Positions 36,625-59,258 of a stretch of 64,000 nt of DNA are shown here, piece after piece. Each line of letters starts with the position of its first letter. The stretch's first letter is position 1. The stretch is taken from NCBI GenBank assembly GCA_031701365.1, contig GCA_031701365.1_4118.1; one strand, 5' to 3'. Origin of the DNA: Escherichia coli. GTDB taxonomy: Bacteria; Pseudomonadota; Gammaproteobacteria; Enterobacterales; Enterobacteriaceae. The notes below the pieces were generated by a model. It was not told the DNA's origin. It did not search any database and was given only the letters and a program-made list of their open reading frames with translations. The position numbers and the translations under genes are program-made.

Positions 36625-36630
36625 AGAAAA

Positions 36631-36657: not shown

Positions 36658-36689
36658 ATGGGATGAAGTAAAAGTTTGTGATATAATTA

Positions 36690-44897: not shown

Positions 44898-44901
44898 TAT
44901 T

Positions 44902-45093
44902 ATGTTGATTTATCAAGGTGATAATATTCGTGTTATGCAGCATCCCTACTTACAAATCTTTGATGTGCAGCAGTATATGGAAGGTGATGACCCAAGAACC
45001 TATGGTCGTAAGTATGATTACTTCACTGTAAAGCAGTGTAAAAATATTAACGAAGTACGACAATTAGTTCAAGAACTTCAAAACAAAGGTTGA
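44902..45093 (+). CDS. hypothetical protein
   Basis: ATG 44902; stop TGA inside the PeSL stem/-35. Confidence 0.45.
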   Translation: MLIYQGDNIRVMQHPYLQIFDVQQYMEGDDPRTYGRKYDYFTVKQCKNINEVRQLVQELQNKG

Positions 45094-45119
45094 CTTCGGT
45101 CAGCCTTTTTTGTTATAAT
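45086..45119 (+). promoter_or_regulatory. PeSL-like cassette: hairpin AAGGTTGAC-TTCG-GTCAGCCTT + T-run fused to promoter (TTGACT-18-TATAAT)
   Basis: Stem contains the -35; TATAAT 45114-19. Confidence 0.65.
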
Positions 45120-45147
45120 TCTATTAATAAATTAGAGGATTTTAATT

Positions 45148-45588
45148 ATGTATGTATATCGTTTTGAACTTAAATTTAGTTACATCGAACCTGACTTAAA
45201 ACCAGCCCTAACTGTTGGCCCGTTTGCACGGTATTCAGCCAGATACAGTACTAAAAATGGATTTGACCGTTTGCTCATGACTACACCTTCTCAATTCCAA
45301 CCTGAACCAACTGAGGATGGGATCTATTCAATCAAAAGTGGATGGGTATTTGGCTGTCAAAGTTTGAAAGATTTGTTCAGATTCTTCACTATGGACTTAG
45401 GTAAATTGCATCGTGCTGGGTTTGCTATATCTGTATATGAAGTTCCAGACCACCATGTAGACATTGGTCGTAATCAAGTTCAGTACTATTGCGGTAGTGC
45501 TAAATTAGTTCGTATCATGTCAGTTAAGGAAGCAAAGGATGAGTTCCGACAAAGTAAAAGAGAAACAAATGAGGTAATATATGGATAA
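45148..45588 (+). CDS. hypothetical protein
   Basis: 146 aa. Confidence 0.5.
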   Translation: MYVYRFELKFSYIEPDLKPALTVGPFARYSARYSTKNGFDRLLMTTPSQFQPEPTEDGIYSIKSGWVFGCQSLKDLFRFFTMDLGKLHRAGFAISVYEVPDHHVDIGRNQVQYYCGSAKLVRIMSVKEAKDEFRQSKRETNEVIYG

Positions 45589-45925
45589 AACTCAAATAGA
45601 ATTAAAGAAATTTGTTTCATTCTATCTTCCTGATGACCCACGTAATTCACAAAAAGATATTGAATATTATAATATCCTATCTAAACAGTTAATGAGAAAG
45701 TTTCAACAGTGTTTAACAATATTCAATACAGATGGAAGACGTAGATACCGAATCGTTTCAATGAATGATGAAAACGCAAATTTCTTTGATTACGATGTGG
45801 TTTTTAGAGCATATAATGATGATCGTATAAAATTAAATTATGATCAAATTATACTTGACCTGAATGTTATATGTGTTATAATCACTCACGTAGCCGAACT
45901 TAATGGTTTTAAAGAATGGTATTGA
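45581..45925 (+). CDS. hypothetical protein
   Basis: 114 aa. Confidence 0.5.
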   Translation: MDKTQIELKKFVSFYLPDDPRNSQKDIEYYNILSKQLMRKFQQCLTIFNTDGRRRYRIVSMNDENANFFDYDVVFRAYNDDRIKLNYDQIILDLNVICVIITHVAELNGFKEWY

Positions 45926-45939
45926 ATAGAGGATAACAT

Positions 45940-46206
45940 ATGAAGCTTAAATTACAATATAATGGATTTACTTTACGTAATGATACTGAATTTATTAATC
46001 GTTCTCCTGGTGCTGAACTGTTTTTACGAGAGATGAACATTCCTTTCATCATTACTACAGTGGGCGACCGTGAAGTTCTACAATACGCAGAGCATCCGAT
46101 CATTGATGTTCCTTGGTACTCTGAGCATATGTACATGGATATGGCACGTCGCTACAACTGTAAGTTCGTAGTTGAAGGTGATAAAATTACAGTCGAATTT
46201 AAATAA
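45940..46206 (+). CDS. hypothetical protein
   Basis: 88 aa. Confidence 0.5.
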   Translation: MKLKLQYNGFTLRNDTEFINRSPGAELFLREMNIPFIITTVGDREVLQYAEHPIIDVPWYSEHMYMDMARRYNCKFVVEGDKITVEFK

Positions 46207-46217
46207 GGTAAATTAAA

Positions 46218-46511
46218 ATGATCAGTACTTCAGTTAATGAAAGCATCGTCGCTGACGTAGAAATGGTTAAAGAATGTGCAGATGAAACTCTTCGTGATAT
46301 GTACATTAATGATTTAATTACTGAATACGGTAGTCGTGGTGTACACGAATTTATTCGTTTAAGTGGAGAGTTGATGAAAAATCGAATTCGTATGAAGCTT
46401 AACGTACATCCAAAAGCATGGGCATTTACATTAAAATACGCAGAAGATATTGTGAATTTGCGTCGAACTGAAGTATATGAACGTTTGCACAATGGTATGT
46501 TAGATAAATGA
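46218..46511 (+). CDS. hypothetical protein
   Basis: 97 aa. Confidence 0.5.
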   Translation: MISTSVNESIVADVEMVKECADETLRDMYINDLITEYGSRGVHEFIRLSGELMKNRIRMKLNVHPKAWAFTLKYAEDIVNLRRTEVYERLHNGMLDK

Positions 46512-46520
46512 TTGTAAAAT

Positions 46521-46550
46521 AGGAATTCTTAAATGAATTCCTTTTTGTTT
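46521..46550 (+). terminator. rho-independent terminator (AGGAATTC-loop-GAATTCCT + T-run)
   Basis: Perfect 8-bp stem then TTTTTGTTT. Confidence 0.65.
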
Positions 46551-46563
46551 ATAAGGTATAGTA

Positions 46564-46785
46564 ATGAAATATATAGTACTTGTACTGATATTATTCAGTA
46601 CTGTTGTAAGTGCTAAACAAAAAGAATATATTAAATGTATAAATTATGAAGAGAAATATGTTGAAACATATAAAAAAAGTATAATTAAAAACGTTTCGAT
46701 TACTAACAGAGCAACAATCATTGTACTTAAAAATGGGTTAATTATGCTATATAAACCACACGTTAAATGTGAAATTATTAATTGA
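46564..46785 (+). CDS. small secreted protein
   Basis: 'MKYIVLVLILFSTVVSA|KQ'. Confidence 0.5.
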   Translation: MKYIVLVLILFSTVVSAKQKEYIKCINYEEKYVETYKKSIIKNVSITNRATIIVLKNGLIMLYKPHVKCEIIN

Positions 46786-46792
46786 GGAAAAT

Positions 46793-47365
46793 ATGAATCG
46801 TAAAGGTCGTTTTAAAGTATCAAAAAAGAACAAAAGTTCTAGGTTTAAACCTATTGTTTTAACAGTTAAATCTAACAAAGAATTAACTGCACTTAGTAAA
46901 AAGATAATTTCATCTAAGATTGAAGTATCATACGTAAATTCATTAAAATATATGAATATAAAACCACTGGACAAACTCATTTCACTTATATTTCAGCGTA
47001 ATGATTTTGAGATATCAGTAGATGATTATAGAGCCTATAATGCTGGTTTCATTAATGTTACTTGTAATAAAAAGCTAACTGAGTTGGAAAACTTGTCATG
47101 TATAGTAAATCTAGATAAAGGTGTAGTGAAATACAATTTTGTACATTTTACTAATATTAATAATGGCATGGGTGTACAATCCAGACCTATAGTACCTACA
47201 TGTGATGTTACTAAATTAGCAAAGCTCAATGATGAAGAATATTTTCAAGAAAGTATTGTGACTGAGCATTTAGATGATATAATAGCTACTTACAAAGAGT
47301 GTATATGGGTTTTGAATGCTATAAAGCCTAAATTGTGTTTAATGAATATTGTTCGTGATTTATGA
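46793..47365 (+). CDS. FFQ-motif family protein
   Basis: ATG 46793 after GAGGA; 'DEEYFQESIVTEHLDDII'. Confidence 0.55.
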   Translation: MNRKGRFKVSKKNKSSRFKPIVLTVKSNKELTALSKKIISSKIEVSYVNSLKYMNIKPLDKLISLIFQRNDFEISVDDYRAYNAGFINVTCNKKLTELENLSCIVNLDKGVVKYNFVHFTNINNGMGVQSRPIVPTCDVTKLAKLNDEEYFQESIVTEHLDDIIATYKECIWVLNAIKPKLCLMNIVRDL

Positions 47366-47378
47366 ATGGGGAATCGTA

Positions 47379-47822
47379 ATGAGTTGGGTAAATGTTAATA
47401 GTATTGAACTTAACGAACAAGATATTTTTGCATTTGTAAATTTAACCAATAATACAGTACTAAAAGGGCGTTTGTTCAGTGCGAGTGATGGATATAAATG
47501 GATCTCTTTGATGGATGATAGTGGTGTGATTTATAATGTAATGCAATTACCCCAATGGGTATATAGTAACACTGCCGACGATGTTCTTGCCGCAGTTATG
47601 CGTGAGTTTGAAAAACTCCCAGGTGGTGATATCAAAAACAAAGTTTTTAATGCAGAACGTAAAAATTATACAGCACAGCAATTGGAATCCCTTGCCATTG
47701 CTGCTTATCAAGCTGCTATTAAGAAGCCAGAGTGCGTTATTCTTAAGTATGTACCAGACTTAAAACTTACGTTGGAAGACATGGATGCATTCATTTTTAC
47801 ATCTGAACTTGATCAGTACTAA
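47379..47822 (+). CDS. hypothetical protein
   Basis: ATG 47379 after GGGGA. Confidence 0.5.
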   Translation: MSWVNVNSIELNEQDIFAFVNLTNNTVLKGRLFSASDGYKWISLMDDSGVIYNVMQLPQWVYSNTADDVLAAVMREFEKLPGGDIKNKVFNAERKNYTAQQLESLAIAAYQAAIKKPECVILKYVPDLKLTLEDMDAFIFTSELDQY

Positions 47823-47937
47823 TTTAACTTTGGGACAACCATTCTTATTATGATATAATGTTTTATGTCATTCGATATAAATGACAACGGAACTATAAAT
47901 ATTATAGTAAAATTTATCTCTTATAGGAGTTATAAAA

Positions 47938-48321
47938 ATGGTTGATAAATGGAATAAGAAAGATCCATCACATGATGTTGATATTTCTGGTCTAGACAAT
48001 GCACATAAGCACAAGTATCTAGATTCACTAGGTCTTCTAAAACCAGACCAAAGTCTTGCACATGATCGTCCATCCCGTGAAAAAGCATTTAGCCTAGAAT
48101 CACTAGGTCATGAGCTTAATCGTGTGTTTGAGGATCACCCAATCTATGTACGTGATATTATCGAGAAACTTAAAGTAACTCCTAAAGAGCACTTTAAAGC
48201 AACAGTACACTCTGCATTCCGTGCATTGCATGATTCTCTCAAGAAAACTCACAATCTTCGTAAAATTCATGATGAAATCGTGAATGCAATCGAAAGTGAA
48301 AAACATAAGTTCAAGAAGTAA
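47938..48321 (+). CDS. basic charged protein, paralog of 48566..49843
   Basis: Shares 'Y(L/V)(D/N)SLGLL' and 'KEL(K/Q)..PKE..K' segments with the next gene. Confidence 0.5.
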   Translation: MVDKWNKKDPSHDVDISGLDNAHKHKYLDSLGLLKPDQSLAHDRPSREKAFSLESLGHELNRVFEDHPIYVRDIIEKLKVTPKEHFKATVHSAFRALHDSLKKTHNLRKIHDEIVNAIESEKHKFKK

Positions 48322-48327
48322 TAAAAA

Positions 48328-48361
48328 GGGGTTGACTAAGGTCAGCCCTTTGTTGTATCAT
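48328..48361 (+). promoter_or_regulatory. PeSL-like cassette (GGGGTTGAC-TAAG-GTCAGCCC; TTGACT-18-TATCAT)
   Basis: Variant loop TAAG; no strong T-run. Confidence 0.5.
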
Positions 48362-48390
48362 AACTTCTCAATATAACTGAGGTATCATAT

Positions 48391-48504
48391 ATGCAAGGTT
48401 TGAAATTTGTAGTTGCTGCACTCATCGCCGCAGTACTGGTTGGTGGTGTATTCTATGTAGTGGATCAAAAAGTAAATCCACCTGCACAAGAACAATCTAA
48501 GTAA
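48391..48504 (+). CDS. small membrane peptide (37 aa) between two PeSL cassettes
   Basis: 'MQGLKFVVAALIAAVLVGGVFYVV...'; hand-translated. Confidence 0.4.
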   Translation: MQGLKFVVAALIAAVLVGGVFYVVDQKVNPPAQEQSK

Positions 48505-48510
48505 CAAAAT

Positions 48511-48543
48511 AAGGTTGACTTCGGTCAGCCTTTTCTTTATACT
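48511..48543 (+). promoter_or_regulatory. PeSL-like cassette (AAGGTTGAC-TTCG-GTCAGCCTT; TTGACT-17-TATACT)
   Basis: Stem + T-run + -10 at 48538-43. Confidence 0.65.
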
Positions 48544-48565
48544 ATAAATATAGACATAGAGAAAA

Positions 48566-49843
48566 ATGAAATCTATGGAGAGAAATCAAATGCCAAGTAA
48601 TTTTACTGATAAAAATGGTGGTAACATGGCTGGTCACTCGGATAAATGGAGTGAACGCAACCGCCGACCAAATAGTTATCAAGCAGGTCAAGGTTCACGT
48701 GGATCACGTAACCAAGGAACTGGTCTAGCTGGTAAAGCAAACGCAGAAGCAGGTGAAGTTAAGAGTACTGAGAACATGACTGAGCTAGAAAAGCTACGTT
48801 ATGTTAATTCATTGGGACTTCTTAATGCTACACAAAAACAACGCCTAGCTGATATGGAACGTGAAGAAAAAGAAAAGTCTGCTCCTGCGAAAGAAGAACC
48901 AAAACAAGAAGCACCAAAGGCGGTTAACCCTGTCAAAGAATTGTCTGATAAGTTAGGTAAGATTTTTGCTAATAAACCACAACTTATCCAAGGTATTGTG
49001 AAAGAATTGCAATCTGTACCTAAAGAAGAATTAAAAGTCAAAGCACAAGCTGTACTTGATGCAATGAGTGGAAATACCAGTACTGAACCAACTGAAGTAT
49101 TCAGTACTATAATGCGTGCACTTGAAGGTACACCACAAGGTGATGTGCCTTCACAAGAGGAAGTAAGTCTTGAAAGCGTACTTAAAACATTTGATAGTAT
49201 TGGTAAAGAAGACCGTGCTAATGCTCAACAAGTTAAGAATGTACTAGCTAAGTTAGAAAACCGTCTGGAAGGTAAAGACGATAAGATTAAATTAGTATCT
49301 GATGCAGTTAACGATGCACTTAAATCTTATGTACAAGGTGAAAAGAGTCGTTTTGTAACTGCAATGGATGCTGCATTCAATACTATGAAAAAGTATGAAG
49401 CTGATCATGGTGAGAAGGTTACACGAGATGGTTATCTGATGCGTGATGATGAAGAAGGTGCAGTAGAACAGAACGATGTTCATTCAGACGAAGAAATTGA
49501 TGACATGGAAGCTGAACTGTCACAAGACCGCCAAATGACTGAAAAATCCCATAACGAACTACAGAAATTAATGCAATGGGTTGCAGATGTTGGTGAAAAA
49601 GCTGGTGCTGATAAGAAGAGTATAAATCGAAATCTTAGTTGGATTAAAGATAAAGTTGGTAACAACGCTCGTAAACTACAAAAAGCGTGGACTGATGTAG
49701 TGAATGGTGCTGTTGACATTGATGTTGAATCCGGTGAGGCATATGATTATGCATTGACTACACTTGATGACTCTTTCCGTGATTACGAAAATGGAAATGT
49801 AACTCCTTGGGAAAAGGACATCATGAGCAAATACGGTAAATGA
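48566..49843 (+). CDS. highly charged A/K/E-rich protein (internal-protein-like composition)
   Basis: 425 aa; low-complexity charged regions; paralogous segments with 47938..48321. Confidence 0.55.
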   Translation: MKSMERNQMPSNFTDKNGGNMAGHSDKWSERNRRPNSYQAGQGSRGSRNQGTGLAGKANAEAGEVKSTENMTELEKLRYVNSLGLLNATQKQRLADMEREEKEKSAPAKEEPKQEAPKAVNPVKELSDKLGKIFANKPQLIQGIVKELQSVPKEELKVKAQAVLDAMSGNTSTEPTEVFSTIMRALEGTPQGDVPSQEEVSLESVLKTFDSIGKEDRANAQQVKNVLAKLENRLEGKDDKIKLVSDAVNDALKSYVQGEKSRFVTAMDAAFNTMKKYEADHGEKVTRDGYLMRDDEEGAVEQNDVHSDEEIDDMEAELSQDRQMTEKSHNELQKLMQWVADVGEKAGADKKSINRNLSWIKDKVGNNARKLQKAWTDVVNGAVDIDVESGEAYDYALTTLDDSFRDYENGNVTPWEKDIMSKYGK

Positions 49844-49851
49844 TAAAACAA

Positions 49852-49885
49852 AAGGTTGACTTCGGTCAGCCTTTTTTTGTAAATA
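49852..49885 (+). promoter_or_regulatory. PeSL-like cassette (AAGGTTGAC-TTCG-GTCAGCCTT + T7; weak -10)
   Basis: Identical stem to other copies; -10 region degenerate. Confidence 0.55.
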
Positions 49886-49914
49886 CAAAAGAGGAATTAA
49901 GAAGAGGGATTACA

Positions 49915-50166
49915 ATGAAAAAATATATTATATTTGGAATTGTATTATTTTCCAGTACTGCTTATGGTGCAGATTATCATTGCTCCGTAGCAAGGCAGGA
50001 TTTCAGAAATGGGGAGTTCTATACTACCTCATACACAAAAGGAATAATACACGACACCGACAGAACTATTGGATTTAATGCGTTTGACAACAAAGATTCA
50101 TATACTTCAGGTATACTATCTGAGCGTAAGACTGATGTAATGGGAATAGAAAAAGAGTTCCGGTGA
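49915..50166 (+). CDS. small secreted protein
   Basis: ATG 49915; 'MKKYIIFGIVLFSSTAYG|ADYHC'. Confidence 0.5.
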   Translation: MKKYIIFGIVLFSSTAYGADYHCSVARQDFRNGEFYTTSYTKGIIHDTDRTIGFNAFDNKDSYTSGILSERKTDVMGIEKEFR

Positions 50167-50176
50167 TTCCGTAGCA

Positions 50177-50500
50177 ATGTGCAATGACATTGAAAGTACT
50201 AAAACAATTTATTATAATAATGAACGTAACTATCGTTTTCATAATTTAACCACAAATAAAAGTTTACTATTTTACAATTGTAAAGAAGTAATACTCCCAT
50301 CAGACAATAGCTGTACTCCAACTAATCAACCCCCAGCACAATGTAATACTCCCTCTGAACCTGATAAAAATAAAAAAGACAAAGATAAAGATAAAAAAGA
50401 AGACAAAAAACCTTTAAAAGATAAAAAGAAAGATAAAAAACCTAATCCGTTTAAAAATAATAAACCAGCACAACCCGATATGACGTGTAAAATAAAATAA
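50177..50500 (+). CDS. Lys/Asp-rich low-complexity protein
   Basis: 107 aa; 'KNKKDKDKDKKEDKKPLKDKKKDKKP'. Confidence 0.45.
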   Translation: MCNDIESTKTIYYNNERNYRFHNLTTNKSLLFYNCKEVILPSDNSCTPTNQPPAQCNTPSEPDKNKKDKDKDKKEDKKPLKDKKKDKKPNPFKNNKPAQPDMTCKIK

Positions 50501-50509
50501 GGATATATA

Positions 50510-50929
50510 ATGAAAAAGATTTTTTTAAGTATTATTTTAGTACTTTTTAGTTTTAATGTATATGCAACAGATGCTAAACAGGTTGCAAATACAGTAAAAG
50601 ATGTTATAGTAGATAATGCTCCTACATTAGAGGAAATTGGGGTAAAAACTTGTGATATAGTAATATATAATTTAGTTAATGATGAACGAGTTATGTTGAA
50701 TACGTATGAACAAGTAGTCCCATTGGTTGAATCTGGTGATGCTTTTAGCTTTACATATAAAGTTAAATTAACAGGAGGGGTTGAAGTTAATCTTGACATT
50801 GATACCGCTTCAGTACTAAAAGATAAACTAGGATATGTGTTCAATCGTATTCGTGAAGAAGGTCATCTTAAGTATGTTTATGAAAGTAAAATACTAAAAC
50901 GTGCAATAGTTATAGAAAACTGTAAATGA
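50510..50929 (+). CDS. secreted protein
   Basis: 'MKKIFLSIILVLFSFNVYA|TDA'. Confidence 0.5.
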   Translation: MKKIFLSIILVLFSFNVYATDAKQVANTVKDVIVDNAPTLEEIGVKTCDIVIYNLVNDERVMLNTYEQVVPLVESGDAFSFTYKVKLTGGVEVNLDIDTASVLKDKLGYVFNRIREEGHLKYVYESKILKRAIVIENCK

Positions 50930-50937
50930 TAATAAAA

Positions 50938-50970
50938 GGGTTGACTTCGGTCAGCCTTTTTTGTTATGAT
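50938..50970 (+). promoter_or_regulatory. PeSL-like cassette (GGGTTGAC-TTCG-GTCAGCC + T-run; TTGACT-18-TATGAT)
   Basis: Same stem-loop; -10 at 50965-70. Confidence 0.6.
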
Positions 50971-50998
50971 GTTGATATTAACTACAGAGGATAAAGTA

Positions 50999-51640
50999 AT
51001 GACTAAGCAAGAAATATTCAAAACTTTAATTGACATTTTGCGTCCATCAAAAACTCGTTGTGCGATGGAGTTTGATATTCCTTATGCTGAACGCGTAATC
51101 TTTCCACAAGTTAAAGCTGCTGGACTTACTTTGCTTGGAATGGGGATGTACTCTGTAGTAGTTGAACATAAAAACTATCCTGGGCGTGCATTTAAAGTAA
51201 CCACATCCCGTTGGGATGGTTTTCGTGCTTATGCAAAGTACTGCATTGAAAACGCAGGAACCAAGTTTCTTCCAGTGATCTACAGTGCAAACGAACAAGG
51301 AAACTTTGGATGGTATGAGATGGACAAGTACTATCCTATAATTAAACAAAAAAATAATTATGATGACTTTGTTAGTACTAAAATTGGAGATTTATATTCT
51401 TATGCACATGCTGGTCAGTACGCTACTTCAGTGAATGATATGCGTGGAAATTCTGAAGAGATTGCTATTGCGACGGTCGCTGCTAACATCATGAAAGAGT
51501 TTCACGGGCGTTTTGTACCAGACATTCATTCCAGTAATGTCATGATGGATAAAGATGGCAATGTATTCATTACTGATCCTCTTTCGTGTGATGTACGTAG
51601 AGAAATACCAGTTACTGAAGAAGATCCAGTTTTTTATTGA
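50999..51640 (+). CDS. protein-kinase-like fold protein (putative small kinase)
   Basis: Gly-loop-like 'LGMGMYSVVV', 'RAFKV' lysine, catalytic-loop-like 'DIHSSNVMMDKDGNVFITDP'. Confidence 0.45.
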   Translation: MTKQEIFKTLIDILRPSKTRCAMEFDIPYAERVIFPQVKAAGLTLLGMGMYSVVVEHKNYPGRAFKVTTSRWDGFRAYAKYCIENAGTKFLPVIYSANEQGNFGWYEMDKYYPIIKQKNNYDDFVSTKIGDLYSYAHAGQYATSVNDMRGNSEEIAIATVAANIMKEFHGRFVPDIHSSNVMMDKDGNVFITDPLSCDVRREIPVTEEDPVFY

Positions 51641-51701
51641 CAGAACTGATGTTCTGGTGTATTCTTAATAAACCATAAAAATTGCGGTAAAGGATAAAAT
51701 C

Positions 51702-51983
51702 ATGCGTTCATTTGAAAACTTAATAGGTAAGCATCTTTTATCTGAAATTGATGCAGACGTTAAAGAATTATCCAAATCAAAAAGTTACATTCATTTGGAT
51801 GAACTGTTTATTAAGTACGGTGAGATTGGTTTTAAGTCATTATTTGTTTTTACTATGAAAGTACATAGTTTAAAGTACTTCGATTTGAGTGCTAAAGATG
51901 GTGAACCGAATCTATATTACATGTATTACCTTAAGAACAAAGATGAAGCTAATACATTACTCTCTGAATATATATTGGGGTAA
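51702..51983 (+). CDS. hypothetical protein
   Basis: 93 aa. Confidence 0.5.
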   Translation: MRSFENLIGKHLLSEIDADVKELSKSKSYIHLDELFIKYGEIGFKSLFVFTMKVHSLKYFDLSAKDGEPNLYYMYYLKNKDEANTLLSEYILG

Positions 51984-51985
51984 AA

Positions 51986-52324: not shown

Positions 52325-52333
52325 GGATTTGTA

Positions 52334-52675
52334 ATGATTTATTACACTAACATGTTTGCCTATGCTGTTGCTTGCATTTACATTGTTTACTTCTTATTCG
52401 GTGGAGTACTGTGCTTCTTTAAGTACAAAACGTTGTTCAACCGAATGTACCCAAATCATCCAATTGTAGTTGTACTTTTGATTCTTTCAGTTTCTCAAAT
52501 AATCGTTGAAACTACAATGGGTATCAGTAGTGTACATTATAGTTTTGGTACTATAGTAATTATTACTATGCTTATTGCATACATTTTAGTACTTGGATAT
52601 GGTATCTTTGGTAATATTGGTATGAAAATGTATCATCGAATTAAAACATTACGTGATAATCTACCGGAGCGTTGA
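52334..52675 (+). CDS. small 3-TM membrane protein family, member B
   Basis: 'FFKYKTLFNRMYP'; C-terminal 'RDNLPER'. Confidence 0.6.
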   Translation: MIYYTNMFAYAVACIYIVYFLFGGVLCFFKYKTLFNRMYPNHPIVVVLLILSVSQIIVETTMGISSVHYSFGTIVIITMLIAYILVLGYGIFGNIGMKMYHRIKTLRDNLPER

Positions 52676-52676
52676 T

Positions 52677-53021
52677 ATGTATAATTTGAACCTAATCTCA
52701 TATATTATAACAACACTGTTTACATTCTATGCCTTTGTTGGTATAATCCTACTGTACTTTAAATTTTATAAAGTGTTTAACCGTTTCTATCCTTCAATGG
52801 AGAATGAGTTTTTCTTTGTGTTGTACGTAGGTTACACATTAATGGCTACATGTTTCACTGTAGCCGATGGTGTCATCGGCATTAAAACTGATTCCCCAAA
52901 TGGTAGTACGCTGGTTGCATTTATTCTTACCGGATTCCTTGCAACTTATATTGCCTTCATTACAACATGGTCAGTGGTTGAATTTCTCTTGCGACTACGA
53001 AAGAATATGCCGAATCGATAG
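52677..53021 (+). CDS. small 3-TM membrane protein family, member C
   Basis: ATG 52677 after GGAG; 'YFKFYKVFNRFYP'; C-terminal 'RKNMPNR'. Confidence 0.6.
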   Translation: MYNLNLISYIITTLFTFYAFVGIILLYFKFYKVFNRFYPSMENEFFFVLYVGYTLMATCFTVADGVIGIKTDSPNGSTLVAFILTGFLATYIAFITTWSVVEFLLRLRKNMPNR

Positions 53022-53030
53022 GAGACATAT

Positions 53031-53285
53031 ATGTTTGCATTGCGTAACAAAAACACTAAAGAATTATTATGTATTGATACCGTATGGGATTGTGCGGGTT
53101 CAACTACAGTTCTTGAAGAAGGAACTGGATATTGCGTGTTTGTTGTACATGATAGGAATGAACTCGAATTATTACTTGCTGAGTTCAATGCTGGTGGTAA
53201 TCCTAACAGTACTGAATACCCTGAGATTATCAATCCAGCACCTCCAGGTTCATATGAAATCCTACCACTATGGGTGTTGAAATAA
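53031..53285 (+). CDS. hypothetical protein
   Basis: 84 aa. Confidence 0.5.
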   Translation: MFALRNKNTKELLCIDTVWDCAGSTTVLEEGTGYCVFVVHDRNELELLLAEFNAGGNPNSTEYPEIINPAPPGSYEILPLWVLK

Positions 53286-53665
53286 TGCGACAAATGTACA
53301 AAGTAACCGAGCTAAACAAGCGTCTGGTTAAACAATCTATGTTTGAGGATAAAGAGTCTTACTATAACTTTAAACGTGCTGTAGAGGCTGCTATCCACAT
53401 CCAGAAGCTTAAAGAACGTGGTTGTATTATTCTGGAAAATGGTTCGGAAGTTGTAACGGATGACTTTAGTGTAGCGTTTGATGTTTCACCTGATGGGACG
53501 CTATCAATGCCCCGCTTAGGAACTGGAAACATGACTGTTTGGGTTGGCTTCACTATGGGGAATGTACCTGGTACTGTGTACGTAGATGATGCGGAATTGA
53601 AAGACAGTTTCAAAAACTTATCTTATCTTGAACCACAATACGCACATGAAATGAATTTATTTTGA
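53285..53665 (+). CDS. hypothetical protein
   Basis: ATG 53285 (TAATG overlap). Confidence 0.5.
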   Translation: MRQMYKVTELNKRLVKQSMFEDKESYYNFKRAVEAAIHIQKLKERGCIILENGSEVVTDDFSVAFDVSPDGTLSMPRLGTGNMTVWVGFTMGNVPGTVYVDDAELKDSFKNLSYLEPQYAHEMNLF

Positions 53666-53666
53666 G

Positions 53667-53694
53667 TTGACAAACACATTCAGTACTGTATAAT
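53667..53694 (+). promoter_or_regulatory. CAGTACTG-class promoter (TTGACA-16-TATAAT)
   Basis: 'gttgacaaacacattcagtactgtataatgcttatcaa'. Confidence 0.6.
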
Positions 53695-53742
53695 GCTTAT
53701 CAAGGGGGATGAACTTCTCATCCCTACAATCGAGGAACTACC

Positions 53743-54297
53743 ATGATTACTTTTAAGAAAACTGCTAACCACATCCATGAAATCTACATTAACGGTCATA
53801 AAGCTGGCCTTCTTCGTTTACTCGCCCATCACCCTGATGCTACCGTATCTGATAATGAACCTAAAGATTGGCGTGTCTTTTTCTTTGGAAAGTACAGTGA
53901 TTTTCAAGTATCAAACCTGAAGAACATTCGTTCAGTATGCACGTTAACTGAAATTAAAGAAAAGTTAGCACAAGCATTGAAAACTAATCCAGATGGTGTT
54001 CTTCCACCTGATAACTTTGTAGAGAAAGGTTATGCCTTAGCTCATTTCAAAGATGGTACTATTCAATCTATCAGTACTGAATATGAATATCATTGGACTG
54101 AGTACTTCACTTATGGTTCGAGTAATACATTGATGGATTCACGTAGTAAATTGGAAGAAGTACTGACTCGTATGAATGAACGCGAGCGTCAGTTATATGA
54201 CAAACCAGAAATGTGGAGTTCAACTTACATTGACCGTATTGACTATGTTATTATGACTCCAATCTTTGACACTGCTTACTATGATTCTTTGAAATAA
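53743..54297 (+). CDS. hypothetical protein
   Basis: 184 aa. Confidence 0.55.
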   Translation: MITFKKTANHIHEIYINGHKAGLLRLLAHHPDATVSDNEPKDWRVFFFGKYSDFQVSNLKNIRSVCTLTEIKEKLAQALKTNPDGVLPPDNFVEKGYALAHFKDGTIQSISTEYEYHWTEYFTYGSSNTLMDSRSKLEEVLTRMNERERQLYDKPEMWSSTYIDRIDYVIMTPIFDTAYYDSLK

Positions 54298-54308
54298 GGA
54301 TAACTTAT

Positions 54309-54485
54309 ATGAAACTACGTACTCGTAATCGACTGATGGATGCACTGTACCATGAACAGCTTTCACTGAATGAAGTGAAGCGTCAGTTAATGTACACATA
54401 TCAGTTTCCCGCTCGCATTGCAAAACAACGTGCTAAAGAATTGCTGAAAGAAGCAATCGAGTACTGGGAATCTGATTCGTACTAA
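54309..54485 (+). CDS. small basic helical protein (58 aa)
   Basis: Hand-translated; below track cutoff. Confidence 0.35.
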   Translation: MKLRTRNRLMDALYHEQLSLNEVKRQLMYTYQFPARIAKQRAKELLKEAIEYWESDSY

Positions 54486-54513
54486 TTGTCACGTTAATTA
54501 AGTGAGGCGATAA

Positions 54514-54765
54514 ATGAAAATTTTATTAGTTCTAATACTACTAATTGTTTTACCATTTACGTTAGTATCCCCTGAACTTGCATGGAATGTGTTTGTGTAC
54601 TTACTATGTACTATGGTGGTAAATGGTATCTTGTTCTTAGTTCTATTCATAAATGGAATAGGACACGGTGGAGGATGGACCAGTACTGCTAATATTGTAC
54701 ATAAAACCACTATGTCTTTATTTGTAGTGTGGAATTTATTCTGGACTTGGTTTGTGTTCTTCTAA
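54514..54765 (+). CDS. small membrane protein
   Basis: 83 aa; 3 hydrophobic segments. Confidence 0.5.
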   Translation: MKILLVLILLIVLPFTLVSPELAWNVFVYLLCTMVVNGILFLVLFINGIGHGGGWTSTANIVHKTTMSLFVVWNLFWTWFVFF

Positions 54766-54773
54766 TTAAAAAT

Positions 54774-55145
54774 ATGAATATAGATTTGAAAGGTGCAACA
54801 CGAACTGTTATCCTCATTGGTGAATATGCTATCAAGATTCCAACCTTTAAAAGTTGGAAGCTATTCTTAACAGGGATGATAGCTAACCTCAATGAACGTT
54901 CGTGGATGCAGTACTCCAATCGTAGTGATACTGGTATCTGTCCTACTTTGTGGTCATCATGTACTGGACTAGTAACTGTACAGAAACGTTGTAAGCCAGT
55001 TCAACATAGGGGTTTATTTTGGGTGGAGTTGTGTGCTTTAGCATTGAATTCAGAGTTAAGTACTGACTTCTTTTATTCAGATGCGAAGCCAGAAAACTTT
55101 GGTTATCTGAATGGTAAGTTAGTTAAACTTGATTACGGAGATTAA
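54774..55145 (+). CDS. truncated protein-kinase-like ORF (N-lobe through DFG-like motif)
   Basis: 'GEYAIKIP' (beta3 Lys-like), 'SDAKPENFGYLNGKLVKLDYGD*' (D-x-K-P-x-N then DYG, stop directly after). Confidence 0.4.
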   Translation: MNIDLKGATRTVILIGEYAIKIPTFKSWKLFLTGMIANLNERSWMQYSNRSDTGICPTLWSSCTGLVTVQKRCKPVQHRGLFWVELCALALNSELSTDFFYSDAKPENFGYLNGKLVKLDYGD

Positions 55146-55227
55146 TATGTACGCGTGAAAGTCTAGTAGAAATTGAATACGACTAAGTAAACCAAGATTT
55201 TTTTGAAGTTACACAAAGGAACATAAC

Positions 55228-55422
55228 ATGTTATTAGTATATTCAAAGCGTTTCTGGATTTCATTTATTGTACTATCGCTAATCGGCTTCGGTGTGAGTA
55301 TACTCTTTTCGTGGGATGATTTGGATACATGGTATTATGAAGTTCCGTGGTACATGAAGATGGCTCCTTGTTACGCGGCATTGTTCGTGTCCTTCCTTAT
55401 TGTTGTCTTCAGTGAGGATTAG
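55228..55422 (+). CDS. small membrane protein
   Basis: 64 aa. Confidence 0.45.
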   Translation: MLLVYSKRFWISFIVLSLIGFGVSILFSWDDLDTWYYEVPWYMKMAPCYAALFVSFLIVVFSED

Positions 55423-55489
55423 TTGATGTAGTGGCAGTCAACTCGATGGGTATGAGATTGTTAAGTTGGGAATTATTGAGTAAAAGGTA

Positions 55490-55518
55490 TTGACACCGTT
55501 CCCATTTAACAGTATTAT
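55490..55518 (+). promoter_or_regulatory. sigma70-type promoter (TTGACA-17-TATTAT) with conserved leader
   Basis: Leader 'tgtacaccaagtaatgaggaat' nearly identical to 55859-55880. Confidence 0.5.
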
Positions 55519-55555
55519 GTATGTACACCAAGTAATGAGGAATAGGAGTGAAACA

Positions 55556-55816
55556 ATGTTAACACCTGAACAGCAAGAAGCCCAAATCGCTAAACACAGC
55601 CTTGACTTTCCTAACGGTATGACAGTTAAAGAACTGAAAGCACTCATTGCTGATTGGCCTGAAACTAACCAATACGGTGAAGATACTAAAGTACTGATCA
55701 GCACTCAAGATGGTATTGATTGCACAGTGCATTCATCTTGGTGCAGTGAAGTTCGTTTCAATGCAAACGATGAACTGGTATATGATCTTAGTTTGGATGT
55801 AGAAGACCGCAATTAA
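55556..55816 (+). CDS. hypothetical protein
   Basis: ATG 55556 after GAGGAATAGGAG. Confidence 0.5.
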   Translation: MLTPEQQEAQIAKHSLDFPNGMTVKELKALIADWPETNQYGEDTKVLISTQDGIDCTVHSSWCSEVRFNANDELVYDLSLDVEDRN

Positions 55817-55887
55817 GACAAATAAAAGGATTGACACTAGTTCTATAGTATTGTAACATGTGTACACCAAATAATGAGGAATCTGAA

Positions 55888-56247
55888 ATGGCATCTTTAA
55901 CTGAAATCACTGAACTGAATCCACTGGCAATTAGTACTGTTCAACGCACAAAGACGTTTTACTTTCGTCCAGTCGATGGTTGGAAGCGTGGTGAGAATGG
56001 CGACTATCGTGTTCTGGAAGATAATCTCGTTGAACGTGTGAATTCAGAACTTAATGTTTATGAAGGTGTTACGGTTGTACGTTCACATTCTCGTTATTTC
56101 GAATACTACATTGAGTCTTCATCGGTAAATGAAAACCGTTCATTTTCTGTTGACAATACTGATGCACTGCGTAATGCAGTATCTATTTTGTGCAATATTG
56201 CAGAAGAAATGGGTTTAACTATCGTAACGATTGGTGAGTTAGCATGA
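55888..56247 (+). CDS. hypothetical protein
   Basis: ATG 55888 after duplicated leader/RBS cassette. Confidence 0.5.
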   Translation: MASLTEITELNPLAISTVQRTKTFYFRPVDGWKRGENGDYRVLEDNLVERVNSELNVYEGVTVVRSHSRYFEYYIESSSVNENRSFSVDNTDALRNAVSILCNIAEEMGLTIVTIGELA

Positions 56248-56441
56248 TTAAAACTTTTATTCTTACAATGGTATTTGGTTCTTATGGTTATGGTGGTGGT
56301 GTGGCGACCGTTGAGTATCCAGTATACGAAGATTGCAAAGCTGCTGCTGAAGTGTTTGTAAAAACAACTAAAGATTTGGCTACCGTTACTGATGCCAAAG
56401 CGTGGTGTACAACTAAAAATACACCAGAAACTAAGAAGTAA
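56244..56441 (+). CDS. small secreted/membrane protein
   Basis: 65 aa; hydrophobic N-terminus then Gly-rich. Confidence 0.45.
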   Translation: MIKTFILTMVFGSYGYGGGVATVEYPVYEDCKAAAEVFVKTTKDLATVTDAKAWCTTKNTPETKK

Positions 56442-56448
56442 AAAATAA

Positions 56449-56482
56449 AGGGTTGACAGTAGTCATCCCTTTTTGCTATAAT
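56449..56482 (+). promoter_or_regulatory. PeSL-like cassette (AGGGTTGAC-AGTA-GTCATCCCT + T-run; TTGACA-18-TATAAT)
   Basis: Directly upstream of denV; shares 'ctttttgctataat(c/t)atttcatc' with copies 7 and 8. Confidence 0.65.
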
Positions 56483-56510
56483 CATTTCATCGAAACGAGA
56501 GGATGAAAAC

Positions 56511-56948
56511 ATGACACGCATTAACTTAGTACACGTTAAAGAACTTGCTGACCAACATCTGATGGCTGAATACCGTGAACTCCCACGTGTGTTTGGTGCT
56601 GTACAAAAACATGTTCAAGCAGGTAAACGAGTACGTGATTTCAAAATTAACAGTACTTATCTGTTAGGTTCAGGTCATGTAACATTCTTCTATAACAAGT
56701 TATTGTACTTACAGAAGCGTCATATTGATATTGTTAACGAATGTTTGCGTCGTGGTATGAAGATTCAAAACATTGAAGTAAACGACATTAGCAGCTTCCC
56801 TGCGGAGTTTTGCCAGGACTATGTGCCATCTGATTCAGAGATTAAAATGTCTCGTGACCGTTTGATTGAGAAGCTCCAGATGAAGCCTACGTGGTATAAG
56901 TTTACTGATGTTGAGTTACCTGAGTACTATACCGAGATGATTAAGTAA
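56511..56948 (+). CDS. denV: endonuclease V, pyrimidine-dimer DNA glycosylase (T4 DenV homolog)
   Basis: 145 aa; 'MTRINL...[33 protein letters not shown]...GHVTFFY' matches the T4 endonuclease V sequence as I recall it, including N-terminal Thr2 and catalytic-region residues. Confidence 0.9.
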
Positions 56949-56961
56949 ATAGAGATTAAAA

Positions 56962-57177
56962 ATGATACTTGACACTTCTAGATACAAGTTTTCAAACAAC
57001 CAGAACACAAATAGAACACACACCATGAAATGGTGGTTGAGACATCGTGATAAGGTTTTGAACACACACACCGTATCAGAACTTATCTCGGCAATTATAG
57101 AATTAAGCGATGATGATTGTGTTGAAAACAATATATATAATTTATGGAATGATTATATTAACATAACTAAGGGTTGA
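56962..57177 (+). CDS. hypothetical protein
   Basis: 71 aa. Confidence 0.45.
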   Translation: MILDTSRYKFSNNQNTNRTHTMKWWLRHRDKVLNTHTVSELISAIIELSDDDCVENNIYNLWNDYINITKG

Positions 57178-57203
57178 CTTCGGTCAGCCCTTTTTGCTAT
57201 AAT
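57171..57203 (+). promoter_or_regulatory. PeSL-like cassette (GGGTTGAC-TTCG-GTCAGCCC + T5; TTGACT-18-TATAAT)
   Basis: ~45-bp identical to copy at 59198. Confidence 0.7.
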
Positions 57204-57229
57204 TATTTCATCAACACAAGAGGTAACAA

Positions 57230-57466
57230 ATGAAACTATCTTTTATACGATTAGCTGAATTCTTCGGTACTGATATTATTACTTTACAACAAATTGCAGA
57301 CAATACTTCATTAAGTACACAAGAAGTACTTGACTTAGATGTAATTAAGTGTGATAATACTTCCATCGATTTCAAAGAAGGTCTTGTCGAAAAAGATAAG
57401 ATTCAGGCTAAGATTAATGGTGCTGGACGGGTTCAGTACTGGAAAGGAGTTTTGAGTAATGTATAA
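57230..57466 (+). CDS. hypothetical protein
   Basis: 78 aa. Confidence 0.5.
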   Translation: MKLSFIRLAEFFGTDIITLQQIADNTSLSTQEVLDLDVIKCDNTSIDFKEGLVEKDKIQAKINGAGRVQYWKGVLSNV

Positions 57467-58835
57467 CAATGAACATAAAAAATTAATTGAAAATTTTGAT
57501 GGTTATGTATATATAAAGTCAGAAAAACTTAATAACAACTGTTATATACATTATAATCATCCTGAACGTTATCTTCCAGTCAAAATTGAATTATCTGATC
57601 TTGTTAAAAGTGTTAAAAAAAATAAAAATCAACTAGCTCCACTACGAACAAAAGAAGAAATAGTTGAAATTGTTAGAAATAAATTTATTAATAAAAAACA
57701 ATATTCAATAAAAAAAATTGATTATAATAAAAGAAGTTCTGAGTGTATTGTTCATTATGATGACAATTCTGGAATTACATATACAGTTTCATTACAAACT
57801 TTAATATATAAAAATTGGGAACCAGAGACAGCTAAGCCAAGAAAGACATTGAATATGCATATTGAATATGCAAAGAAAAAATTACATGAATTAGGTCATG
57901 AATTTATAAAATTTAATAGTGATAAAATTGATAAAAAAACATATGTTATTTACAAACATAGCTCAAGAATATTACCATGTGAAATACAATATTACGAATT
58001 GCGTAGATGTGATGATAAATTAATACCTCATTTGACTATAGATGAAATAAAAGCAAAAGTTGAGCATGAAGCATCAATACAAAATGTAATAATAACAGAT
58101 ATTATAGAATGTATAAATTTATCATATTCTAATATAAAATATAAATTACCTGAAAATAATGATATAGGTGGTGAAGTACAATATATAAGTATGATTAAGG
58201 ATGGATTTTCGTTTAGACATAAAAATAATATCAAAACTGATAATTTTTATTATAATTATGGTGTGGAGTTTTGTAAAAAAAATGGTTTGGTATTCATAAA
58301 AGTGATTGAGTATAATAAAAAAATGACAAAATATCATTTTAAAATGCTAAATGGTGAAGATTGGAAACCAACTTATAGCTCTTTGGCACATAGTGGTTCT
58401 TTATGTAAAGGTGGATACCAAAATAATAATGCTGCCCGTGTATATGTGAATAATGACCATTGTGGTGAAGCTGACAATGCTGGGAAAACCATGCAAAAAA
58501 AATTCAATAATAGATTAACGGTTAGAAATAATTCATTTTATAAAAATTATGGTATTAAAAATTTTTGGAAAAATGAATTATTGATTTTATTTAATAATAA
58601 AAATGGTGGTAAATTAGCTACTGAATTGGAAAAAATAATTCATACAACTGCATTATGTGGAAGACCACATGGAAGAACCGGTTATTATGAAAAAGGCGAT
58701 GGGTGCACAGAAACATTCAACAACATCCATCGACCTAAAGTTAACGAAGCCATTAAAAAGTTCTTAGCAGAACATGAAGGTGAGTACATTATCGAACGTG
58801 ATATCAATGGTATTTTTGGTGAAGTAATTTTGTAA
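57459..58835 (+). CDS. AT-rich Lys/Asn/Tyr-rich protein with internal ~40-aa repeats (possible acquired/mobile gene; nuclease role unproven)
   Basis: 458 aa; four repeats of 'x-Y-x-I-K-...-Y-x-I-H-Y'-like module; Cys/His-containing C-terminal region; local composition markedly more AT-rich than flanks. Confidence 0.5.
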   Translation: MYNNEHKKLIENFDGYVYIKSEKLNNNCYIHYNHPERYLPVKIELSDLVKSVKKNKNQLAPLRTKEEIVEIVRNKFINKKQYSIKKIDYNKRSSECIVHYDDNSGITYTVSLQTLIYKNWEPETAKPRKTLNMHIEYAKKKLHELGHEFIKFNSDKIDKKTYVIYKHSSRILPCEIQYYELRRCDDKLIPHLTIDEIKAKVEHEASIQNVIITDIIECINLSYSNIKYKLPENNDIGGEVQYISMIKDGFSFRHKNNIKTDNFYYNYGVEFCKKNGLVFIKVIEYNKKMTKYHFKMLNGEDWKPTYSSLAHSGSLCKGGYQNNNAARVYVNNDHCGEADNAGKTMQKKFNNRLTVRNNSFYKNYGIKNFWKNELLILFNNKNGGKLATELEKIIHTTALCGRPHGRTGYYEKGDGCTETFNNIHRPKVNEAIKKFLAEHEGEYIIERDINGIFGEVIL

Positions 58836-58855
58836 AACAAAAGAGGTTAATTAAA

Positions 58856-59182
58856 ATGAAAAAGTTAATGTTAGTTATGTTAATGTGTTTATCAACAACA
58901 GTGAATGCAAAAACTGAAGCATCAACAACATGTAAATCCACAAAAACTGACACTATCTACAATTTGTATTTGGATGTAACAACACAAACAGCAAAAATAG
59001 ATGGAAAGAAGTTTATGTTTGAAAGTCAAGAAGTATTTAAAGATGGAAGTGGTTCGTATACTATTTTTTCAAATGATAAATTGAATCAAAAATTAAAAGT
59101 TTTTGTTATTAAACCTAATAAGATAAAATATATTATTACCTATAATGGTAAAAATATTGATATGGGTAATTGTGTGTATTAA
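58856..59182 (+). CDS. secreted two-cysteine protein (family member 3)
   Basis: 'MKKLMLVMLMCLSTTVNA|KTE'; 'KIDGKKFMFESQEV'; C-terminal 'GNCVY'. Confidence 0.55.
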   Translation: MKKLMLVMLMCLSTTVNAKTEASTTCKSTKTDTIYNLYLDVTTQTAKIDGKKFMFESQEVFKDGSGSYTIFSNDKLNQKLKVFVIKPNKIKYIITYNGKNIDMGNCVY

Positions 59183-59197
59183 ATATGTTTATAAAAA

Positions 59198-59230
59198 GGG
59201 TTGACTTCGGTCAGCCCTTTTTGCTATAAT
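59198..59230 (+). promoter_or_regulatory. PeSL-like cassette (GGGTTGAC-TTCG-GTCAGCCC + T5; TTGACT-18-TATAAT)
   Basis: Identical to 57171 copy through 'gctataattatttcatcaac'. Confidence 0.7.
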
Positions 59231-59258
59231 TATTTCATCAACTGATGAGGATAACGAA

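Follow-up and report, generated by a model that had tools for sequence, protein, structure and literature searches.

The window analysed here is a 64,000-nucleotide (nt) stretch of contig GCA_031701365.1_4118.1, from an assembly deposited as Escherichia coli (GCA_031701365.1). It belongs to the genome of an Asteriusvirus (121Q/PBECO4-like) jumbo coliphage. The genes of its 45-59 kb block all lie on the plus strand and are mostly small hypothetical open reading frames (ORFs). Between them are copies of a candidate regulatory cassette in which a terminator-like hairpin overlaps a promoter-like site, a layout reminiscent of the promoter early stem-loops (PeSLs) of T4-type phages. The cassette opens with an A-tract and GG(G)TTGAC, followed by a 4-nt loop, then GTCAGCC(C) and a T-run; with the -10 box that most copies have after the stem, the signal is about 35-50 nt long. 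All eight copies of the original prediction, named C1 to C8 below, were found by a loose-pattern scan, all of them intergenic and on the plus strand. Their TTGAC motifs are at 45090, 48332, 48515, 49856, 50941, 56453, 57174 and 59201.

C1 (45082..45119) has its hairpin at 45082-45111, the -35 box TTGACT at 45090-45095 and, after an 18-nt spacer, a TG-extended -10 box TATAAT at 45114-45119; the folding energy (dG) is -14.1 kcal/mol (z -5.0). A Shine-Dalgarno (SD) box at 45135 and an ATG at 45148 follow. C2 (48321..48361, dG -18.3) forms a hairpin with the loop TAAG, with the -35 box at 48332-48337 and the -10 box TATCAT at 48356-48361. Its predicted target is a hydrophobic mini-ORF of 37 amino acids (aa) at approximately 48391-48504, whose homologue is annotated in ELP-22. 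C3 (48511..48543) follows almost immediately, with the hairpin at 48511-48532, the -35 box at 48515-48520, a 17-nt spacer and the -10 box TATACT at 48538-48543. The gene after it, ending at 49843, encodes a virion structural protein (phrog_20398). C4 (49847..49878, dG -15.7) contains a hairpin with a run of seven T and TTGACT at 49856, and lacks a usable -10 box; the gene downstream of this terminator-only, or half, copy starts at approximately 49915. C5 (50934..50970, dG -18.7) has the hairpin at 50934-50961, the -35 box at 50941-50946 and a TG-extended -10 box TATGAT at 50965-50970. It precedes a gene for a T7 gp0.7-like protein kinase (phrog_15752, ATG at 50999).

The last three copies surround the genes discussed most below. 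C6 (56447..56482) has a diverged stem GGGTTGACA-GTA-GTCATCCC with one mismatch (dG -12.9, z -3.6). Its promoter-like site, with TTGACA at 56453-56458 and TATAAT at 56477-56482, is predicted to drive denV (56511-56948, ATG at 56511; Pfam Pyr_excise, E = 7e-15). A 71-aa ORF (56962-57177) follows. C7 (57169..57215) comprises a hairpin at 57169-57192, the -35 box at 57174-57179, the -10 box TATAAT at 57198-57203 and the leader ATTTCATCAAC. Between C7 and C8 there are three genes: a conserved one of 78 aa (57230-57466), a variable 458-aa ORF of an endonuclease family (57459-58835; phrog_681, E = 2e-12) and a 108-aa ORF (58856-59182). C8 (59192..59242) has the most stable hairpin, of 14 base pairs (bp; 59192-59223, dG -19.5, z -6.6), the -35 box at 59201-59206 and the -10 box TATAAT at 59225-59230. 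Its predicted target is the AAA-type ATPase gene at 59259-60029. Thus both denV and the ATPase gene, named in the original prediction as cassette-flanked genes, were identified, at C6/C7 and at C8 respectively.

All eight copies follow a stop codon, lie on the coding strand and end in an SD box and ATG, with GAGG or GGAG 6-9 nt before the ATG, which is consistent with the gene calls in relatives. Every copy has a tract of 3-6 A immediately before GG(G)TTGAC, corresponding to the AT-rich tract of PeSLs. The -35 box is TTGACT except in C6, and the spacer is 18 nt except in C3, in line with the spacing of about 17 nt in PeSLs. The -10 hexamer is TATAAT in C1, C6, C7 and C8. It matches the consensus in 5-6 of 6 positions in seven copies, the best match in C4 being 3 of 6, and the extended -10 TG is present in 5/8. 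The transcripts fold into hairpins of 9-14 bp with -12.9 to -19.5 kcal/mol and z from -3.6 to -6.6 relative to dinucleotide shuffles. An Rfam scan of the whole window at gathering scores yielded five tRNA matches only and no match to the cassettes.

The original description of the cassettes as near-identical holds for the core and for the pair C7 and C8, which are identical over 47 nt (57169-57215 and 59196-59242; about 45 bp had been claimed). Over 60 nt the pairwise identity is only 30-51. The stem GG(G)TTGAC/GTCAGCC(C) is general except for the mismatched 3' arm of C6 (GTCATCC). The TTCG loop occurs in six of the eight, being replaced by TAAG in C2 and AGTA in C6, and the -10 box said to follow each stem does so at 17-18 nt in all copies but C4.

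Two cassettes overlap the gene before them: the ORFs at 44848-45093 and 56962-57177 end with the TGA inside the -35 TTGAC of C1 (45091-45093) and C7 (57175-57177). The homologues in ELP-22 and WPEC3 are annotated likewise. In these two copies a ribosome at the stop codon would thus be positioned on the 5' arm of the hairpin, and one may speculate that it modulates termination.

The array is far from random. The loose pattern TTGAC-N4-GTCA has eight matches in the 64-kb window against 0.81 expected, the largest value in shuffled sequences being four. The 18-mer GGTTGACTTCGGTCAGCC has six exact matches and one with two mismatches in the loop, all on the plus strand, with 0.00 expected. A profile hidden Markov model built from the eight copies found no further copies in the window and gave a weak extra match at 36627 only. 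The latter was rejected as a ninth copy, being a different hairpin: the terminator GGTTGGC-TTAT-GCCAACC with a run of seven T (36627-36690) is followed approximately 40 nt on by the promoter-like site TGTGATATAAT, so that stem-loop and promoter do not overlap.

The copies are confined to 14.1 kb of the window (P ~2e-4 for eight random sites falling into 14.1 kb or less). This block holds many copies among small ORFs and the remainder of the window none, as in the hyperplastic regions that harbour PeSLs. In 121Q the exact 18-mer occurs seven times, six times in the orthologous block and once near 144.9 kb. The idea that all copies belong to this block was rejected because of this outlying copy, and the concentration is thus strong and not exclusive. 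The block matches Asteriusvirus phages, including 121Q, PBECO4, SP27, slurp01, phAPEC6 and ELP-22, with 96-98% identity. None of these matching phage records covers at least 80% of positions 45000-60000, and therefore close relatives differ by insertions and deletions here. The cassettes are the sole direct repeats of 30-47 bp in the block, and hence could also serve as portable homology.

The window was aligned with seven relatives, and the flanks of every cassette were compared in eleven. Four chimeric junctions were found. In UE-S1, a single cassette connects the sequence left of C2 with the gene after C3, a 183-bp mini-module being lost, and the sequence left of C4 leads into the kinase gene that follows C5, at the cost of a three-gene module. 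SP27 has lost a 2-kb module, so that the left flank of C7 is followed by the ATPase gene that C8 precedes in the window; UE-S1 has an equivalent junction. In Ec-M-J, the flank that precedes C6 in the window leads to the gene after C7; relative to Ec-M-J, the window thus carries an inserted module of a cassette, denV and the 71-aa ORF (cargo 56511..57177). This module appears to have been relocated: in 7/7 aligned relatives the cassette and denV are upstream of two small genes that precede the denV module in the window. Among the eleven relatives the ATPase gene is found in six left contexts, and denV and the gene after C7 in four each, while several left contexts pair with two or three right contexts. 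The large ORF between C7 and C8 is replaced by five other genes of 372-628 aa in five relatives, and is absent in SP27 and SD-15_S21.

Apart from complete chimeras there are scars. Downstream of denV in SP27, 121Q and G17, a half cassette reads AAAGGGTTGACTTCGGT joined to TACACAAAGG, and ELP-22 has a variant broken after GTCA. The half cassette after denV in relatives also reads AAAGGGTTGACTTCGGT joined to TACACAAAGGAACATAACATG, with the break in the loop or the 3' arm. The window contains the right-hand scar sequence without the half cassette. These comparisons bear out the proposal of shuffled accessory modules, the cassettes being the exact junctions of deletions, replacements and one relocation in the eleven relatives. 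As a separate observation, the variants TATAATc/tATTTC and GTCAGCC versus GTCGGCC form a patchwork over the C6, C7 and C8 positions among phages, a pattern consistent with gene conversion between cassettes.

One possibility is that the cassettes are functional but passive in this plasticity, the mosaicism at 55-59 kb being driven by homing-endonuclease genes and illegitimate recombination, with viable junctions falling between genes in any case. Indeed, the most variable cargo is of an endonuclease family, annotated in relatives as homing or HNH endonuclease. The left breakpoint of the variable ORF (57447-57468) is at a gene junction and not at a cassette, and WPEC3 and Ec-M-J carry an inserted HNH gene immediately before C6. 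Breakpoint clusters are enriched in cassettes relative to sequence length (4/23 versus 2.3% of the sequence, P = 0.0017). Relative to other intergenic gaps the enrichment is approximately 4.7-fold (4/8 versus 7/40) and only suggestive (one-sided P = 0.068, or 0.07 when rounded). However, the chimeric junction sequences are the stronger evidence for shuffling, and they speak against a bystander role. The four cassette-to-cassette fusions are clean and independent, and the C2/C3 and C4/C5 modules of UE-S1 contain no endonuclease gene. The C7/C8 fusion of SP27 removes non-endonuclease genes too. The crossovers are inside the repeat, as seen from the chimeric flanks and from the scars broken in the loop or 3' arm. 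Left flanks recur with two or three different right flanks, as do right flanks with left ones. Finally, Pfam did not find a canonical HNH or GIY-YIG domain in the 458-aa ORF of the window. A passive role of the cassettes is therefore unlikely in our opinion. The variable genes between C7 and C8 were also rejected as classical homing endonucleases, as Pfam reports neither HNH nor GIY-YIG and PHROG states just "endonuclease"; Pfam finds CapR domains in the 121Q version only.

The promoter half cannot be assessed by simple counting, since sigma-70-like matches are not enriched in the region overall (82 versus 85.7 expected); the test must be positional. For that, IMG/VR was scanned by the hairpin alone, with the patterns AGGTTGAC-N4-GTCNNCCTTT and GGGTTGAC-N4-GTCNNCCCTT and without requiring a -10 box. 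This yielded 230 unique viral sites among the matches listed, to which all counts of IMG/VR sites given below refer. A -10 box (5/6 or better, with A2 and T6 required) is found in 87 sites with a 17-nt spacer and in 57 with an 18-nt one, that is, in 144/230; every other spacer from 8 to 32 has it in 0-15 sites. The consensus around the -10 box in the promoter-bearing sites is TGcTATAATA, so that the extended TG is retained too. As the -10 box is locked to TTGAC at 17-18 nt across sites selected by hairpin, the promoter half is an integral part of the element in many phages and no accident of the window. In the window itself, 7/8 copies have a -10 box of 5/6 or better at spacer 17 or 18 (P ~5e-11 under independence). 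In PA5oct, a distant relative, promoters of the TTGAC/TATAATA type are supported by RNA-seq (PMC7318152).

The other half fits the description of intrinsic terminators, with a G+C-rich stem of 5-14 bp, a loop of 3-8 nt, a U-rich run and a position after a stop codon. The orthologous hairpins are annotated as ARNOLD terminators in G17 (MK327931; -13.5 to -17 kcal/mol) and in UE-S1 (ON568341). In the supplement to the CBB genome (PMC5259590), GGGTTGACTTCGGTCAGCCC hairpins are the terminators Torf515, Torf518 and Torf520, and RpoD-like promoters form a separate list. In the promoter-bearing IMG/VR sites the 5' arm is invariably TTGAC, and the two free positions of the 3' arm are A or G, pairing with U, in 95% and 88% of sites; changes at these positions are mostly between A and G. 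The loops belong to the UNCG or GNRA type in 79/144 sites. Such tetraloops are especially stable in RNA. The stem is lengthened by pairing of the A-tract with the U-run, with further uridines after it. In 7/8 copies and in 99/144 promoter-bearing sites a T stands opposite a G, which makes the repeat imperfect as DNA and is a legal G-U pair in the coding-strand RNA. The wobble G is present in 99/144 promoter-bearing sites versus 25/86 others, a comparison confounded by relatedness of the sites, and perfect palindromes with a -10 box also occur. As a speculation, the conserved wobble may destroy a mirror-image -35 box on the opposite strand.

These features indicate that selection acts on the palindrome as a hairpin in the coding-strand RNA and less as a symmetric site in DNA. 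Alternatively, the palindrome might be mainly a protein site on DNA, either an operator of a phage regulator or the target of a recombinase or nuclease, with the RNA hairpin secondary. Its overlap with the -35 box is typical of operators, a stem-specific DNA-binding protein has been speculated for PeSLs (PMC2839356), and endonuclease genes adjoin cassettes (SegD in KVP40, HNH in WPEC3 and Ec-M-J, and the endonuclease-family ORF between C7 and C8). However, a DNA site explains neither the preponderance of repeats that are imperfect in DNA and well paired in RNA, nor the loops that vary freely yet favour UNCG and GNRA, nor the U-run directly after the stem, the extension by the A-tract and the location right after stop codons. 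We consider a primarily DNA-level function very unlikely, an additional one alongside the RNA hairpin being possible. Least credible of all is that these are intrinsic terminators only, their -35/-10 likeness being incidental in AT-rich DNA and the downstream genes being reached by read-through from distant promoters: public annotations (G17, UE-S1, the CBB supplement) do list terminators alone, sigma-70-like matches are at chance level overall and C4 has no -10 box, but such terminators would account neither for the locked spacing and conserved extended TG, nor for a 5' arm that is always TTGAC though any stem sequence would serve, nor for SD and ATG at a fixed short distance, and PeSLs of like layout are strong promoters in reporter assays (PMC2839356).

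The explanation we favour, and hold to be quite probable on the sequence evidence, is that the cassettes are overlapping terminators and early promoters of PeSL type, which also act as portable homology for module shuffling. In the RNA of the upstream unit, GG(G)UUGAC and GUCAGCC(C) would pair around the UUCG loop, with the A-tract and U-run lengthening the stem, and the transcript would end in the U-run. In the DNA, the 5' arm of the stem would serve as the -35 box TTGACT, the 3' arm with the T-run as the spacer of 17-18 nt, and (TG)n-TATAAT as the -10 box. Host sigma-70 RNA polymerase would then re-initiate approximately 7 nt past the -10 box, on a leader of 22-30 nt with GAGG and ATG. The 45-59 kb block would thus be cut into insulated units, each of a promoter and one or more genes. 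Seven of the eight copies have the hairpin, U-run and locked -10 box of the composite element originally proposed; C4 departs from it and, having lost its -10 box, would only terminate. Recombination between two cassettes would delete, insert or swap the module between them, leaving expression signals intact. General homologous recombination can by itself account for the junctions; the use of host sigma-70 and the recombination pathway are inferred.

Several points weigh against this reading. The P values overstate independence, since the eight copies are paralogues of one another and the IMG/VR sites are linked by phylogeny. Information on covariation comes solely from the two free positions of the 3' arm, as the 5' arm is fixed by the -35 box and the sites were selected by pattern. 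An 18-nt spacer and TTGACT are slightly off the optimum, C4 has no -10 box, and in C2 and C3 the TG is missing and the U-runs are weaker and interrupted (TTTGTTG and TTTTCTTT). For the shuffling part, there is the modest enrichment over intergenic gaps given above, and there are breakpoints outside cassettes at 49480-49590 (inside the structural gene), 54486-54771 (deletion of a single gene), 55154-55208 and 57459 (a gene junction). Finally, for every Asteriusvirus both termination and initiation are predicted events.

The cassette is widespread. A 53-nt query from C8 found 714 places in 184 phage records. Asteriusvirus genomes have 6-9 copies each, the Rak2-like phages of Klebsiella as many as 13, the Munch-like phages of Salmonella 9-10 and the KVP40-like phages of Vibrio 3-4; one copy each is found in Aeromonas-65-like phages and in Vequintavirinae (CR3, CB7). 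The SPO1-like Brochothrix phage A9 has short exact cores, also followed by a -10 box. By a rough estimate, single matches in phages of Gram-positive bacteria are within chance among many UUCG terminators. A cassette precedes denV in three genera (RaK2, CBB and the window), with unrelated left flanks, and the GTCATCC mismatch of the diverged C6 is present in the RaK2 copy too.

It may be, although we are doubtful, that the cassette is an expression plug exchanged horizontally, and related by descent, among unrelated large myoviruses, moving together with its downstream gene, possibly as mini-circles. Candidates, on account of near-identical cores, may be Rak2-like phages, the KVP40-like and Aeromonas-65-like relatives of T4, Vequintavirinae and SPO1-like Brochothrix phages. 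The hairpin could be a target of the ever-changing endonuclease genes beside it. Alternatively, these lineages may have converged on an optimal, forced design: TTGAC would be imposed by the -35 box, UUCG or GNRA by RNA stability, and the U-run by termination.

Two motifs were observed in the leaders after cassettes. Outside the window, cassettes often carry a leader hairpin (c)tAaCCCAyaGGGTGc approximately 20-30 nt after the -10 box, which is absent from the window and is possibly an element of the 5' untranslated region. It was seen in 121Q near 144.9 kb (site L168:1965), RaK2 (L055, L126), CBB (L022) and uncultured contigs (L014, L028, L032, L056). The leader of C6 (56483-56497) has, right behind the -10 box, the motif (T)CATCGAAAC(G/A)AAAC, which recurs in cassettes of unrelated phages: KVP40 (L008, L122), the Vequintavirinae phage CR3 (L010), L017 and L056. 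GAAAC is found at most 21 nt after the -10 box in 27/144 promoter-bearing IMG/VR sites, versus 2/230 upstream control windows.

The block also contains a mosaic stretch unique to the window (55155..56441), with ORFs lacking a counterpart in the seven aligned relatives. A small gene in it (55229-55422) has a homologue in relatives preceded by a half cassette, and a relic of the 3' end of a gp216-like gene is at 55447-55486. Two hairpin-less sigma-70-type promoters are predicted at 55490-55518 and 55831-55859, with TTGACA-N17 and the -10 boxes TATTAT and TAACAT; the identical leader GT(A/G)TGTACACCAA was observed after both. A similar hairpin-less promoter-like site precedes the homologous gene in SP27, 121Q, G17 and PBECO4.

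A second repeated family of hairpin-less promoters was noted on the plus strand at 21701, 22110, 22180, 22941, 39006, 43315 and 53666. It has the form (C/G)TTGAC(A/T)-N8-9-TCAGTACTG-TATAAT-GnTTAT, a consensus of sigma-70 type, with the conserved palindromic spacer CAGTACTG supplying the extended -10 TG. Four copies are in the tRNA cluster at 20357-24340, which contains six tRNA genes (Gly-tcc, Ser-tga, Ser-gct, Met-cat, Asn-gtt and Thr-tgt), and one of the copies is directly before tRNA-Ser at 22977. At 112-158, TTGACA-N17-TATAAT overlaps a hairpin with a 15-bp stem, GAGTGCGTTTTTAATATAATCTTATTGAAAACGCACTC, followed by TTTTT; the -10 box is in the loop, and this further overlap of promoter and terminator is unrelated in sequence to the cassettes. 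Coding repeats were observed as well. Three tandem paralogous ORFs of approximately 113-116 aa occupy 60097-61123, the repeats 60097-60225 and 60438-60566 being 78% identical, and relatives vary in copy content. Three tandem 21-nt repeats (AATGTGATCATGAAGAATGTG-like) at 24589-24659 encode a Cys/His/acidic heptad repeat.

For jumbo coliphages of the 121Q/PBECO4 type, under study for therapy, the cassettes provide a testable map of an early region that otherwise lacks annotation: seven early promoters and eight terminators are predicted with nucleotide precision. As the same sites are annotated as terminators only, the promoter annotation would be incomplete in dozens of deposited genomes. In engineering, the cassettes could be natural insulated landing pads, since relatives show removal and insertion of modules without harm to neighbouring genes.

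Extended -10 sigma-70 promoters with a proximal UP-like A-tract are an established architecture in E. coli. The cassettes share with them TTGACT, the spacing of 17-18 nt, TGnTATAAT and an A-tract at the proximal UP subsite, whose UP-like role we infer. They differ in that the -35 box and spacer double as an RNA hairpin and U-run. The terminators annotated in G17, UE-S1 and CBB are the very same hairpins at orthologous positions; the difference is that those annotations name neither the promoter overlap nor a role in rearrangements. The Asteriusvirus genome papers do not discuss promoters, and the RaK2 genome paper mentions neither promoters nor terminators. In the searchable literature PeSLs are mentioned in only four phage or virus papers, none of them on Rak2-like phages, and a full-text search for the motif string returned nothing relevant.

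The closest known elements are the PeSLs of RB49 and phi1. They consist of an intergenic AT-rich tract, a sigma-70 promoter, a terminator stem-loop, and SD with ATG, fall into five subclasses and concentrate in hyperplastic regions at the junctions of insertions and deletions; strong promoter activity, termination, deletions and mini-circles were shown experimentally (Arbiol et al. 2010; PMC2839356). The likeness to PeSLs claimed originally is sustained, since one of the listed subclasses has a stem-loop overlapping the -35 box, as here. Like the RB49/phi1 elements, the cassettes are co-oriented intergenic composites among small early ORFs, at the junctions of deletions, insertions and replacements. 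However, they follow a single layout with almost the same sequence throughout, GG(G)TTGAC-UUCG-GUCAGCC(C), whereas the RB49 stems are formed by G-runs and C-runs in five positions relative to the promoter. Besides, activity and mini-circles were shown for RB49/phi1, and the cassettes are known from sequence alone. All structural features of PeSLs that can be checked in sequence were found, C4 being a degraded half element, a category that Comeau et al. (2014; PMC4122927) describe for PeSLs too.

According to that paper, PeSLs extend to T4/PST and KVP40/nt-1, with the nt-1 stem consensus A3-4G3-loop-C3T3-4 and the -10 box TAWWAT. KVP40 contains at least eight sites of the form AAAGGG-TTGAC-N4-GTCAG-CCCTTTC..G-TATTAT, often with the same G-U wobble; these sites are not equated with the published PeSL positions. 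They have the TTGAC-in-stem architecture of the cassettes, and the published nt-1 consensus fits them. They differ from the cassettes in their varied loops (AGAT, TACG, GCTT), shorter U-run (CCCTTTC) and -10 box TATTAT. The text of PMC4122927 places the stem-loop "just upstream of" the promoter, with the -35 box TTGYVH, which is at odds with the KVP40 sequences found here. The best matches of the window are Asteriusvirus (121Q, PBECO4, SP27), Rak2-like jumbo phages that belong to the Caudoviricetes outside Straboviridae, the family of the T4-type phages. We treat this mismatch as one of scope and not of structure, so that the host range of the class is extended. The array, well supported as PeSL-type by sequence and backed by unusually clear comparisons for shuffling of modules from cassette to cassette, is accordingly an extension of the known PeSL class to a new lineage and not a new class. 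PeSL-type shuffling would then reach beyond T4-type phages, with the overlapping design, often in the same 18-mer, present in Rak2-like jumbo phages and other large myoviruses.

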